64,000 nucleotides of DNA from assembly GCF_024223415.1 (NCBI RefSeq), contig NZ_CP100500.1, one strand, 5' to 3'. How positions within the stretch are numbered: position 1 is the stretch's first letter; each line of letters opens with the position of its first letter. Shown one piece after another: positions 26,133 to 27,941 of the stretch. Position numbers and translations under genes: made by a program. Origin of the DNA: Escherichia coli. Its GTDB lineage: Bacteria; Pseudomonadota; Gammaproteobacteria; Enterobacterales; Enterobacteriaceae. The notes below the pieces were generated by a model. It did no database searches, was not told where the DNA came from, and worked only from the letters and a program-made list of their open reading frames with translations.

Positions 26133-26340
26133 TTCAATGAATTACCGTTAAATCATTTTAAAATCAGTAAGTTGTATCGAGTTTGTATGCTTTACTGTCA
26201 TTAACTTACTGTATGTTGATCCAGTGTATTTAACCTTGATAAACTCAGTCCAGCAACACAAAACCGCAACACATTGCATTTTGTCCCGTAGAAAAGACTT
26301 GTATGTGTGAGCTTGTTTTCTGCGCCTACGCAGATAAGGA

Positions 26341-27744
26341 TTGAGAATGCCGCGCACTGTAACACATAATCCGGATAGCCCCAATAATGACGATGTTTTA
26401 GCCGCTTCTGAAAAATGGGACGCCTGTAAACCCCCCTATACCAGCGCACACATGAAAATCTGTGTTGCTGCCGCCAAAATCATCCTCGCTGCTTCCGGCG
26501 TGGCTCGCCGTTCCAAATACGAAAAAGAGAACTATCTCCGTATCGATTTCAGCAAAGCCGGTAAGGTTACATTTTACGCCGAGTTTCCAAAAAAGATGGG
26601 CCTCAAAGGTAAAAAGCTCGGCGAGTGGCCGGAGCTCGCTATCCAGCTGGCGCGCGAAAAAGCACTAGGTATGGCTGACGGTGGACTGCGGGCAGAGTCC
26701 GTACATGCAGCGCTGGAAATGTACCGGGATGACCTCAAAGCCAAAGTAGCCCGTCAGAAGCTGAGCCCGGACAGTTTCACAACCTATGGGGTGCGTATCG
26801 ACCGGATTAAATCAACGTTCGGCGAGCGCGAGGTGTTCAGCGACGTAACATACAGTCGGCTGGTGGAAGTGCTGGACGAGTGGATCGCCACTCGCTCGAA
26901 CAATAACGCCCTGGAGTTGTTTGCCGAGCTCCGTCGGTTCTGGAAGTTCTGCGCACCTACTCTTTGCAACGGCCGCAATGTTGCCGCCAGTCTGCCAGAT
27001 GATTATGTTTCCTCCCGCGTACAGAAACCCACCCCCACACGGCTTTTTACCGATATTGAGTCAATCGCCCGGCTCTGGCTCAATGTTGCCGCCTGCACCT
27101 CTGTACACCAGAAGAATGCTGTTCGCTTCATGATCATCACCGGAGTTCGTCCGATTAATGTCCATAACCTGCGCTGGGACTACGTTCACGAGGAGGTTGG
27201 TGAAATTGTTTATCCGGAAGGGGTTATCGGCATGCGAGGGGCTATGAAAACACAAAAGGCTTTCCGCCTGCCGATAACGCCTGAGATCCGGCGGATTATC
27301 GACGAGCAGAAAGCCTGGCGTGATTCAGTTCCTGAGTGCAACAGGGATTATGTATTTTTGCAGCCACGTGATCCAATGCAGCCATTTTCAAAACGATCAC
27401 TGGATAAGCTGGTGAAAACATACAGCCCGGACGGGGCTGTAAAAGGAATAAAACATGATGGGACTGTTAAAGGGAAAGACGGTGCATTTAATACGATGTG
27501 CCGTAAATTCCTTAAGAGCAATGTTATTGCCTTGATGAAGGAAAGAGGCTATTCCCGATCAGACCGAAGGGAAATCAGCCTCCTTTGCCTTCACCACTCC
27601 AGCAAGTCAGATGACCCGATGGCAGAACATTACGACTTTTCTGATGAGATTTTACAGGAAGAGATTGCGTTAAAGCGCGAAGCTTTCGAGGCTCACGAGC
27701 GGAGCATACTTGCGCAGGTGGCATTGCTACGGCGGCGAGGTTAA
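26341..27744 (+). CDS. prophage site-specific recombinase (divergent tyrosine integrase); true start may be internal
   Basis: 467-aa ORF at prophage edge next to an AlpA-like excisionase; C-terminal part shows integrase-like elements (ITGVRP..., ...LHHSSKSDDPMAEHY with candidate catalytic Tyr). Family call by eye only. Confidence 0.6.
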   Translation: MRMPRTVTHNPDSPNNDDVLAASEKWDACKPPYTSAHMKICVAAAKIILAASGVARRSKYEKENYLRIDFSKAGKVTFYAEFPKKMGLKGKKLGEWPELAIQLAREKALGMADGGLRAESVHAALEMYRDDLKAKVARQKLSPDSFTTYGVRIDRIKSTFGEREVFSDVTYSRLVEVLDEWIATRSNNNALELFAELRRFWKFCAPTLCNGRNVAASLPDDYVSSRVQKPTPTRLFTDIESIARLWLNVAACTSVHQKNAVRFMIITGVRPINVHNLRWDYVHEEVGEIVYPEGVIGMRGAMKTQKAFRLPITPEIRRIIDEQKAWRDSVPECNRDYVFLQPRDPMQPFSKRSLDKLVKTYSPDGAVKGIKHDGTVKGKDGAFNTMCRKFLKSNVIALMKERGYSRSDRREISLLCLHHSSKSDDPMAEHYDFSDEILQEEIALKREAFEAHERSILAQVALLRRRG

Positions 27745-27941
27745 TACCGGCTGCGACACTTTTGAATAAAAGCGTCGACATTGCGGCGCTCATAACGAAC
27801 TACTTTTGCACTGAAACGAATTGGTGCCAGGATAGCCCGATGACGATGCTTAATATTCCACTCACATAGCGTTTTCTGTGTAATACCTAACTTTTGGCAT
27901 ACTTCATCCGGGGTGAGTAAATCGTCGGGTTTCTCGCTCAT
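27741..27941 (-). CDS. AlpA/Xis-like excisionase / transcriptional regulator
   Basis: ORF 27741..28139; real start at internal Met (MSEKPDDLLTPDEVCQKLGITQKTLCEWN...), 66 aa; AlpA-type HTH; adjacent to the integrase. Confidence 0.7.
   Translation of the reverse strand: MSEKPDDLLTPDEVCQKLGITQKTLCEWNIKHRHRAILAPIRFSAKVVRYERRNVDAFIQKCRSRY

Follow-up and report, generated by a model that had tools for sequence, protein, structure and literature searches.

The left end of an Escherichia coli prophage very probably lies inside yfhL, with the 5' end of the gene supplied by the phage

In this work we are asking where, and by means of which enzyme, a prophage has entered the chromosome of Escherichia coli next to yfhL, using a stretch of 64,000 nucleotides (hereafter the window) that contains the junction. 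An earlier note, made from the sequence alone, had placed a prophage boundary beside yfhL, and this boundary is real: the gene on the minus strand is followed by int on the plus strand, which is transcribed, as that note had described, from the junction into the prophage. The same note expected attL within 26133..26340 and considered integration into an intergenic or promoter-proximal site probable, and on these two points our results lead elsewhere. Very probably a temperate phage has its attL here, with an integrase that carries out recombination between attP and an attB situated inside the 5' end of yfhL. All features are listed in Table 1.

Table 1. Positions of the features discussed, numbered from the first letter of the window
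Feature	Position	Strand	Basis or description
yfhL	25872..26132	-	86-aa 2x[4Fe-4S] ferredoxin, intact chimeric ORF
attL core, 17 bp, TCACACATATCACAATT	26086..26102		identical in attB, attP, attL and attR
Phage-borne mimic of yfhL codons 1-10	26103..26132	-	attP contigs and four-way att comparison
P' arm of attP, 214 bp	26133..26346		divergent region between rebuilt yfhL and int
LexA-box-like dyad TACTGTATGTTGATCCAGTG (CTG-N10-CAG)	26207..26226		sole match in the window, 0.17 expected
Tandem candidate arm-type Int sites GCAACACA-N5-GCAACACA	26253..26273 (26253..26260, 26266..26273)	+	conservation
Conserved block (C)ATGTGTGAGC	26303..26312		about 40 nt upstream of int ATG
int, 465-aa tyrosine integrase	26347..27744	+	Pfam PF00589, PHROG_1
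Third direct copy of the candidate arm-type motif, GTAACACA	26359..26366	+	read from sequence; overlaps int codons 5-7
66-aa HTH protein, candidate excisionase/recombination directionality factor	27741..27941	-	HTH_17, PHROGs
SNF2-family helicase	27938..29332	-	Pfam SNF2-rel_dom 4e-12; upstream of the xis-like gene, 4-nt overlap

The description of int as encoding a long and divergent tyrosine recombinase was borne out. Its start was set at the ATG, in agreement with the RefSeq annotation of identical loci; TTG 26341 is merely where the gene begins in the list of open reading frames. An HMM search of the product found the recombinase domain PF00589 (Phage_integrase) above threshold, weakly (29.5 versus 27.1 bits, residues 248-361), together with the PHROG_1 integrase profile at 8.6e-26; the same Pfam domain was matched by 17 of 19 members of the Int family. 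Since no NCBIfam model was matched and a phmmer search of solved structures (PDB) gave no informative match, we used an AF2 model followed by a fold search. The model (pLDDT 79.4) had as its best PDB match full-length lambda Int (1z1b, E 1e-9), and XerA, Tn1549 Int, IntI, XerH and Cre were matched as well. The modelled architecture is lambda/P4-like: additional helices at the N-terminus are followed by a beta-sheet domain for arm binding (residues about 54-115), a helical one for core binding (about 119-215), the catalytic domain and a long C-terminal helix. The Arm-DNA-bind_3 domain (PF13356) was detected at E <= 0.1 in 14/19 family members (best 1.7e-6); the similarity of the window protein itself is insignificant (E 0.075, residues 58-107, below cutoff), and the model shows a beta-sheet plus helix in this place.

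As catalytic residues we propose R268, K301, R386, H417 and Y429. In the 19-sequence alignment, reaching down to 33% identity, the first four are invariant and Y429 nearly so, and the first histidine of the HxxR motif is replaced by T383, which is likewise invariant. Confidence of the model falls below pLDDT 50 at 377-388 and 415-431, that is around R386 and H417-Y429, and the catalytic assignments therefore rest on conservation.

Relatives of this integrase are found next to yfhL wherever we looked. A yfhL-like gene lies directly upstream of int and divergent from it in 29/29 species-representative genomes, with int relatives going down to about 36% identity, and the same divergent adjacency was seen in all 10 lineages obtained by exact protein lookup, their other neighbours being variable. 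The arrangement shared by every relative examined points to a dedicated yfhL-targeting integrase family. Within E. coli, 5,426 complete genomes were surveyed: an empty, uninterrupted yfhH-yfhL site was present in 5,266 and int beside yfhL in 159, the two classes adding up to the 5,425 genomes in which a match was obtained. Wherever the yfhH-yfhL junction is interrupted in this set, int of the window type is there. At least two virion types and four immunity types are represented among the elements with this int module.

It might be supposed that the att anatomy given below is right and that the element is nevertheless a fixed, non-excising remnant with an inactive integrase and arm features that are relics. 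The threonine in place of the HxxR histidine and the poor model around the active site would fit such a remnant, as would the Shewanella homologue, truncated before the tyrosine and accompanied by an IS, and the failed induction of yfhL-sited Stx2b prophages reported in PMC12029490. Against this, T383 belongs to the same invariant set as R386 and H417, and such conservation of the active site down to 33% identity argues for selection on a working enzyme. The occurrence of one int module with several virion and immunity types indicates recent mobility, contigs carrying joined attP do exist, and the int and xis reading frames of the window are intact. We consider the remnant improbable.

The site of recombination was defined by comparing attB (K-12), attP (viral contig L016), attL (window, IAI1 and TB06051) and attR (IAI1 and TB06051). 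Recombining attB of K-12 with attP of L016 yields exactly the attL sequences and the attR sequences listed. The 17-bp core TCACACATATCACAATT is identical in all four sites, so strand exchange must fall within it. The core covers yfhL codons 11-16 (N11-C12-D13-M14-C15-E16), part of the first CxxCxxC iron-sulfur cluster motif, and occurs once in the window even when 2 mismatches are allowed, with 0 matches expected by chance. Inspection of the core by eye for dyad symmetry gave no convincing inverted core-type sites, and for this reason the overlap is placed only within the 17-bp identity block. Beyond the core, an imperfect direct repeat between attL and attR extends over 26086..26122 (31/37 nt), comprising the core and part of the mimic. 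Joined attP was found in uncultivated viral contigs retrieved from IMG/VR with the exact junction pattern; in three of them (L016, L015 and L058) the prophage right end, the core, the yfhL mimic and int are contiguous, and neither L016 nor L015 matches the K-12 flanks. When deposited phage genomes were searched with the att/int region only 63-bp matches were obtained, and the three related GenBank phage records start or end in the helicase gene and are without int and att.

These data bear directly on the intergenic reading, according to which the phage entered the yfhH-yfhL intergenic or promoter region, attL lies within 26133..26340 and yfhL was left untouched. With a complete yfhL frame and prophage genes starting about 200 bp from its start codon, this is the natural reading when comparison sequences are absent. 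The comparison with prophage-free genomes, K-12 and other empty-site E. coli, puts the junction elsewhere, inside yfhL codons 11-16: the match to the empty site extends only to 26122, within yfhL, which together with the identity block means that the prophage starts inside the yfhL frame and not some 200 bp upstream of it. The interval 26133..26340 is wholly phage DNA, and the whole of 26103..26346 is joined to the other end of the phage in the viral contigs. In the complete lysogens IAI1 and TB06051, attR keeps the native first 47 nt of yfhL (the native 5' fragment reads TCACACATATCACAATTGATGCATTTTTTAGTGATTAACARCGCCAT, and the reverse-strand native 5' end GATGCATTTTTTAGTGATTAACARCGCCAT). The native yfhH-yfhL gap, moreover, amounts to just 55 bp in K-12 and in the 5,266 other E. 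coli genomes with an empty site. Intergenic insertion is thus very hard to sustain. Other statements of the earlier note agree with what we observed. The window contains no tRNA or tmRNA gene, at the junction or elsewhere, and attR lies beyond the window, as follows from the single copy of the core and from the absence of any host-type attR sequence in the 64,000 nt.

Integration inside yfhL has left a chimeric gene. Its product matches the NCBIfam YfhL equivalog NF033683 at 135.5 bits (cutoff 86). Host DNA makes up codons 17-86 and the att core codons 11-16, and codons 1-10 with the start codon are of phage origin, as is everything upstream of them according to the four-way att comparison; the effect on the yfhL promoter that had been suspected is therefore real. 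The N-terminus reads MSLLITKRC in the window and MALLITKKC in the native protein, the two changes (A2S and K8R) both being conservative, and 20/30 nt of the mimic equal the host sequence. In the attP contigs the mimic is contiguous with phage right-end DNA, making a mini-version of 21 protein letters (not shown), and the replacement yfhL 5' end is encoded by these contigs. The phage origin of the 5' end is demonstrated in E. coli-type elements, and in other genera the evidence is adjacency. That the MSLLITKRC end represents no more than a host allele or a tract of gene conversion, the similarity of attL and attR being incidental, might be argued from the allelic differences that exist in the yfhL region (about 2.4% divergence between the window chromosome and K-12), but we regard it as extremely improbable, since the same segment is present in host-free attP contigs, is fused to varied host-type YfhL bodies (..GDHI, ..GEHI, ..GDSI, ..GESI), is always accompanied by int in the E. 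coli loci compared, and since the attL of IAI1 switches at the core from K-12-like on the left to phage-like on the right.

With the rebuilt gene established, attention turns to the P' arm, which must hold whatever promoters now drive rebuilt yfhL and int. Its length is well kept in relatives, 213-216 bp in most Enterobacterales and 202 in one. The tandem pair GCAACACA-N5-GCAACACA is unique in the window (0.03 expected), forms invariant columns in the cross-genus alignment, keeps its place, +123/+136 counted from the yfhL ATG, in all Enterobacterales loci examined, and was found by exact pattern in 19 of the 29 species representatives, Shewanella and Pseudoalteromonas included. A third direct copy, GTAACACA, already within int, recurs at +229/+230 in 15/29 of them, and the Int residues encoded there are modelled as disordered (pLDDT 41). 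The P arm has further copies, at about -105 (inverted), -59 and -47. Judged from their sequence and placement, these GYAACACA repeats of both attP arms are candidate arm-type Int sites. The block (C)ATGTGTGAGC repeats the left half of the core (TCACACAT) in inverted orientation. It is near-invariant in E. coli, Serratia, Yersinia and Veronia and replaced by TTTGTGAAC in Morganella, and may be an Int or a promoter element.

A consensus scan revealed no sigma-70-like promoter entirely within 26133..26346 and none for yfhL on the minus strand. The lone promoter-like site nearby on the plus strand, 26341..26370, begins 6 nt ahead of int and overlaps its start. An Rfam scan of 24800..28200 found nothing in the arm, the only match being ohsC, downstream of yfhL.

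The P' arm also contains the dyad TACTGTATGTTGATCCAGTG. The LexA box consensus is TACTG(TA)5CAGTA, and 15 of the 20 positions of the dyad agree with it. A CTG-N10-CAG at offset +77 is kept in a minority of lineages only: besides the E. coli-type and Morganella elements, 6/29 species representatives have it. From this resemblance we put forward the hypothesis that the dyad is a putative SOS operator for int and/or for the phage-supplied yfhL promoter. A phage CI operator was considered as well and rejected, since six elements carry one and the same dyad even though pairwise identity among their immunity repressors is only 24-60%.

A xis-like HTH gene on the minus strand adjoining int had been predicted, and it is there. 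The gene is convergent with int, overlaps its stop codon by 4 nt and closes the leftward early operon, in which the SNF2 helicase gene precedes it. Its 66-aa product falls below the cutoff of Pfam HTH_17 (22.9 bits versus 27) and is matched best by PHROG_4745 (4e-27), a generic 'DNA binding protein', with weaker matches to the excisionase PHROGs 66 (1e-5) and 1553 (7e-5). Homologues with 30-68% identity adjoin int in six other lineages. The helicase belongs to a replication module common to related yfhL prophages, as judged by synteny with IAI1, TB06051 and F1022. As yfhL hosts Stx2b prophages, Stx was looked for too: among the ORFs that lie between the Q gene and terminase and reach 70 aa or more, none reads as Stx-like in translation.

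On function alone, the closest analogue would seem to be the family of DusA-associated integrases, carried by prophages and genomic islands located at the 5' end of dusA (Farrugia et al. 2015, PMC4482086). Common to both are a tyrosine-integrase family tied to a single 5'-end site in a protein gene, an element that supplies a replacement 5' end with upstream region and leaves the ORF intact, an original 5' end found at the far boundary, and an integrase gene adjoining the target gene. The present case differs in its target, the yfhL ferredoxin with the core in CxxCxxC-coding codons, and in its integrase, which has 465 aa and a weak arm-binding domain of P4 type and is accompanied by conserved arm repeats; its range here is Gammaproteobacteria only.

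Two further systems share parts of this design. To lambda the likeness lies in the structural match, which is the best one and is full length including the N-terminal arm-binding domain, in the short repeats of both attP arms, and in a small adjacent DNA-binding protein as candidate Xis. Unlike lambda, identity of Int is only 12-16%, attB lies inside a gene, and threonine stands for the HxxR histidine; moreover, lambda int is co-transcribed with xis toward att from pL, whereas int of the window reads away from att, presumably from a promoter of its own, and converges on xis. P4-type integrases combine Arm-DNA-bind_3 with Phage_integrase, have att immediately upstream of int and work with an AlpA/Vis-type excisionase. 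Their layout, with att upstream and int reading away from the junction, is seen here as well, accompanied by weak Arm-DNA-bind_3 similarity in most family members and by a small HTH partner (AlpA/HTH_17-like). P4-type elements, however, target the 3' ends of tRNA genes and not the 5' end of a protein gene, and the Arm-DNA-bind_3 match of the window Int stays below threshold.

Put together, these data give the following course of events. Integration splits host yfhL and, as attP carries the codon 1-10 mimic with a start codon beside the core, recreates a full-length gene at attL, with the first 10 codons, ribosome-binding region and promoter taken from phage DNA. The native promoter and the first 16 codons stay at attR, beside yfhH. 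Int is probably a lambda/P4-type heterobivalent tyrosine recombinase, whose N-terminal domain would bind the GYAACACA repeats, of which the int side has three, all direct, and the opposite arm two direct copies and an inverted one. The convergent 66-aa HTH protein would serve as excisionase. Because int points against the early-left operon, it would need a promoter of its own within the 214-bp arm. In E. coli-type elements the LexA-like dyad may tie int or rebuilt yfhL to the SOS response.

yfhL has already been published as an E. coli prophage insertion site (Bobay et al. 2013, PMC3603311) and as a site of Stx2b prophages (PMC10675304, PMC12029490), and STEC1590, a strain of the published Stx2b work, is among the genomes with window-type int beside yfhL. 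In the parts of these three papers cited here yfhL is listed as a disrupted gene or insertion site, without definition of attP and attB and with no mention of the rebuilt ORF or of the integrase family. The exact attB, attP and core are now given for this class of elements, Stx2b prophages included, and the gene, listed in published surveys as disrupted, is yet rebuilt. Prophage boundary calls can be corrected accordingly, as IMG/VR calls count the host body of yfhL as viral, and the defined sites can serve to type such elements, to detect excision by PCR and to employ yfhL as a defined place for integration. After dusA, yfhL is a second clear case of a protein gene whose 5' end has an integrase family dedicated to it and a replacement 5' end carried by the element. 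The crossover lies in the most constrained codons of yfhL, those of the Fe-S cluster cysteines, which fits integrases choosing sequences unable to drift.

A wider proposal, which we offer as tentative and rather doubtful, combines three statements: that the elements define an undescribed integrase family of Gammaproteobacteria specific for the yfhL 5' end, that yfhL is rewired in lysogens to Int occupancy or DNA damage, and that int is under SOS control. If this were true, a conserved host gene would stand under an element-supplied promoter region that holds the arm sites of Int and, in Enterobacteriaceae, an SOS box, and SOS control of int would be independent of the phage repressor.

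We aligned the empty site of E. coli K-12, in which yfhL lies 55 bp from the end of yfhH, with the window and the two ends of each of the homologous prophages in IAI1 (42 kb) and TB06051 (43 kb). Window and empty site remain similar as far as 26122, inside yfhL, and no further. The two prophage ends, attL and attR, have in common an imperfect 37-bp repeat (31 of 37 positions identical), whose left 17 bp, the core, are identical in attB, attL and attR. The core is yfhL codons 11-16 (N-C-D-M-C-E), which belong to the CxxCxxCxxxCP motif, the ligand of the first Fe-S cluster. Right of the core, attL carries AATACAGCGTTTAGTAATTAGTAAAGACAT, the reverse complement of which encodes 10 residues, while attR carries the native GATGCATTTTTTAGTGATTAACA(A/G)CGCCAT, encoding M-A-L-L-I-T-K-K-C-I and followed directly by the yfhH-yfhL spacer. 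This phage-borne copy of codons 1-10 (the mimic) differs from the host codons at 10 of 30 nucleotides and changes two residues, A2S and K8R, both conservatively; a fragment under coding selection would look like this.

To find the joined phage site itself, IMG/VR was searched with an exact pattern over the predicted attP joint (phage right-arm end, core and yfhL mimic), and two uncultivated viral contigs, L016 and L015, were matched. In L016, 1079..2508 corresponds to the right end of the prophage, where IAI1 and TB06051 have attR, and 2471..5700 to the left end, with core, mimic, int, xis and helicase; the K-12 flanks gave no match in this contig, and L015 behaves alike. A third element, L058, which is 89% identical, is joined correspondingly; its core is a variant of its own, GCACATGTCGCAATT, and a short ORF there resembles yfhL. 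Within attP the mimic forms a mini-peptide ORF of 21 residues. Recombining the attB and attP sequences on paper reproduces the observed attL and attR exactly, which settles the att anatomy and makes 26103..26346 phage DNA. By this sequence comparison the junction is inside yfhL; the interval in which the earlier note had expected attL, 26133..26340, belongs to the int-side arm of attP (P' arm).

For the objects themselves that reading held: the prophage end is real and its gene inventory was correct, with yfhL, int on the + strand, the HTH gene (xis) on the - strand, and no tRNA or tmRNA within the window. On the host side, era, recO, pdxJ, acpS and the shoB/ohsC locus lead up to yfhL, in a stretch that is 97.6% identical to K-12 across 4.3 kb. 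A gap of 214 bp separates yfhL from the long + strand ORF, which in the ORF list begins at TTG 26341. The features are collected below.

Features of the prophage end at yfhL (window positions)
Feature	Position	Strand	Remarks
yfhL	25872..26132	-	complete 86-aa ORF; NCBI YfhL equivalog, 135.5 bits (threshold 86)
Core	26086..26102		TCACACATATCACAATT
LexA-like dyad	26207..26226		TACTGTATGTTGATCCAGTG; CTG-N10-CAG, as in LexA boxes
Candidate arm-type tandem pair	26253..26273		GCAACACA-N5-GCAACACA; unique in window (0.03 expected by chance)
Conserved element	26303..26312		(C)ATGTGTGAGC; inverted copy of the core's left half
Short hairpin	26322..26335		CTGCG-CCTA-CGCAG; directly upstream of the int ribosome-binding site; not kept in Serratia, Yersinia or Morganella
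int	ATG 26347	+	AAGGA ahead of ATG; 465 aa, as RefSeq annotates at identical loci
Third motif copy	26359..26366		GTAACACA; overlaps int codons 5-7; recurs at +229/230 in 15/29
66-aa HTH gene	27741..27941	-	convergent; 4-nt overlap with int stop codon
SNF2-type helicase gene	27938..29332	-	co-directional; its stop overlaps the HTH gene by 4 nt

The profile search bore out the recombinase assignment of int, with Pfam Phage_integrase narrowly above threshold and a clear match to PHROG_1; NCBIfam and PDB sequence searches gave no match. At 465 aa the protein is long, yet inside the range of P4-type integrases. The homologues group into one coherent family, with 92 clusters from Enterobacterales, Vibrionales, Aeromonadales and Alteromonadales. 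In a 19-sequence alignment reaching down to 33% identity, R268, K301, T383, C385, R386, K387 and H417 are invariant and Y429 nearly so, which fits the R/K/HxxR/H/Y pattern except for T383 in place of the first His. The AlphaFold model built from this alignment (pLDDT 79.4; below 50 around R386 and around H417-Y429) consists of an N-terminal helical pair, a four-stranded sheet with a helix (residues 54-115), a helical domain, a catalytic domain and a long C-terminal helix. Among PDB structures, full-length lambda Int (1z1b) matches the model best, at E 1e-9 over about 380 aligned columns; truncated lambda Int, XerA, Tn1549 Int, IntI, XerH and Cre rank below it. Arm-DNA-bind_3 (P4-type) matches the sheet region weakly in 14 of the 19 members (only E 0.075 for the window protein). 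Int is thus most likely a heterobivalent tyrosine integrase of the ordinary kind, though a divergent one.

The association with yfhL extends across the family. Exact-protein lookups of homologues with 36-77% identity gave the genomic context for 10 lineages (Serratia, Yersinia, Morganella, Shewanella, Thalassotalea, Pseudoalteromonas, Oceanimonas, Veronia, Psychrobium/Alteromonadales and Celerinatantimonas), and in all 10 int directly adjoins, divergently, a gene for a YfhL-like ferredoxin of 81-89 aa, while the genes on its far side vary. The same arrangement was found in 29/29 loci from GTDB representatives, one genome per species; three had seemed to lack yfhL solely due to its GTG start. 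The element origin of the yfhL 5' end was demonstrated for E. coli-type elements only; in a pair of Yersinia lysogens that encode an identical Int, the differences fall exactly on the bases immediately to the right of the core, in line with the boundary being the same in this genus. The homologue of Shewanella sp. Isolate7 (P0081, L009:3001-4395) ends ahead of the conserved Tyr region and has a DDE transposase gene about 1.2 kb downstream; this element is probably decayed.

The P' arm measures 214 bp here, 213-216 bp in most Enterobacterales and 202 bp in one. Counted from the yfhL ATG, its tandem pair stands at +123/+136 in all the Enterobacterales loci examined; Veronia, Thalassotalea, Shewanella and several Pseudoalteromonas have it at the equivalent place, and 19 of the 29 species representatives carry the exact pattern. 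On the opposite (P) arm, copies occur inverted near -105 and as a tandem direct pair at -59/-47 in IAI1, TB06051, L016 and the divergent L058; AACACA has an overall frequency of 0.56 per kb in the window. Because of this repeat pattern and its conservation, we infer that the repeats of both arms are candidate arm-type Int sites. The dyad is the sole such site in the window (0.17 expected) and matches 15 of 20 positions of the LexA box consensus, TACTG(TA)5CAGTA. It is identical in six elements despite repressors only 24-60% identical to each other, which favours a host factor over a phage repressor; CTG-N10-CAG is kept at this position in only 6 of the 29 representatives. SOS control through the dyad is a possibility that we put forward tentatively.

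In lambda, int is expressed from the early-left promoter, whereas here it reads away from the junction, against the early-left operon, which ends with the helicase and HTH genes. With this orientation expression from the early-left promoter is impossible and a promoter within the P' arm is needed; int would thus be expressed from its own promoter there. Mutual interference could arise from the converging transcription. The arm sites and the copy in the first int codons are so placed that autoregulation, known for P4 int, would be possible. Homologues of the HTH protein (30-68% identity) stand beside int in Serratia, Yersinia, Morganella, Oceanimonas, Veronia and Pseudoalteromonas, and weak excisionase-family matches point to it as the likely candidate for the directionality factor.

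For the rebuilt yfhL, no promoter-like site came out of the consensus scan. GTG replaces ATG as the yfhL start beside int in Pantoea stewartii (L103), Pseudoalteromonas (L119, L122) and L093, which may lower translation of the rebuilt gene if its end is element-borne as in E. coli. On the attR side, the native promoter and the 16 codons behind it run on into phage DNA, giving an 18-codon ORF; in IAI1 (L001:5698-8622) the phage genes that come next encode a hypothetical protein and an acyltransferase and are oriented like this promoter, and host read-through into this cargo is conceivable.

Among 5,426 complete E. coli genomes, a 381-bp probe over the intact yfhH-yfhL junction, counted at ≥80% coverage, found the empty site in 5,266, and a yfhL-int-xis probe was covered in 159. 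Together the two sets account for each of the 5,425 genomes that gave a match at all; wherever the site is interrupted in this collection, the yfhL integrase module is therefore involved. Across the 80 IMG/VR loci that encode this integrase, the N-terminus is of the phage type, MSLLITKRC, with K or C at residue 8 in a few, and is joined to YfhL bodies of several kinds: those of E. coli (...GDHI and ...GEHI) and those taken to be of other host types (...GDSI and ...GESI). The N-terminus therefore travels with the element. Most of these contigs (L017-L096; e.g. L017:1-475) begin with the yfhL stop codon, which puts int exactly 475 nt from their start, so that the host-derived yfhL body is counted as viral. 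The GenBank records ON470579.1, ON470582.1 and ON470588.1 ('Escherichia phage vB_EcoM-...') align with the att/int query sequence along no more than its last 63 nt and start or end inside the helicase gene; int, xis and the att end are apparently missing from them.

The module is carried by different phages, with a myovirus-type late region in IAI1 and TB06051 and lambda-like head and tail genes in the window and F1022, and four different immunity repressors are represented. The window prophage has int, xis, helicase and replication genes in common with IAI1 and TB06051, and (44346..64000) lambda-like lysis, terminase, head and tail genes instead of their myovirus-type late genes; F1022 holds a similar lambdoid version of >49 kb at yfhL. 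In the replication module of IAI1, a TIR-domain protein gene (L001:42386-43147), absent from the window's version, lies directly downstream of the DNA polymerase gene and may be defence or counter-defence cargo.

As a prophage site yfhL is already known: it is listed among E. coli genes 'disrupted' by prophages (PMC3603311) and reported as a newly identified Stx2b prophage insertion site (PMC10675304, PMC12029490), and STEC1590, one of the strains of the Stx2b papers, is among the genomes with int beside yfhL. A full-text search of incomplete coverage returned no account of yfhL att sites, the rebuilt ORF or the integrase family, a weak indication that the family has not been described. The closest described system is that of the DusA-associated integrases, whose elements use one insertion site, the 5' end of dusA, and bring a replacement 5' end with a putative promoter, the original 5' end staying at the distal boundary (PMC4482086); in its mode of integration the yfhL element works alike. 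Rather than entering an intergenic or promoter-proximal site, as the earlier note had supposed, this well-behaved lambda/P4-like integration module inserts within the coding sequence at the 5' end of yfhL and restores the gene, and its integrase family is widespread.
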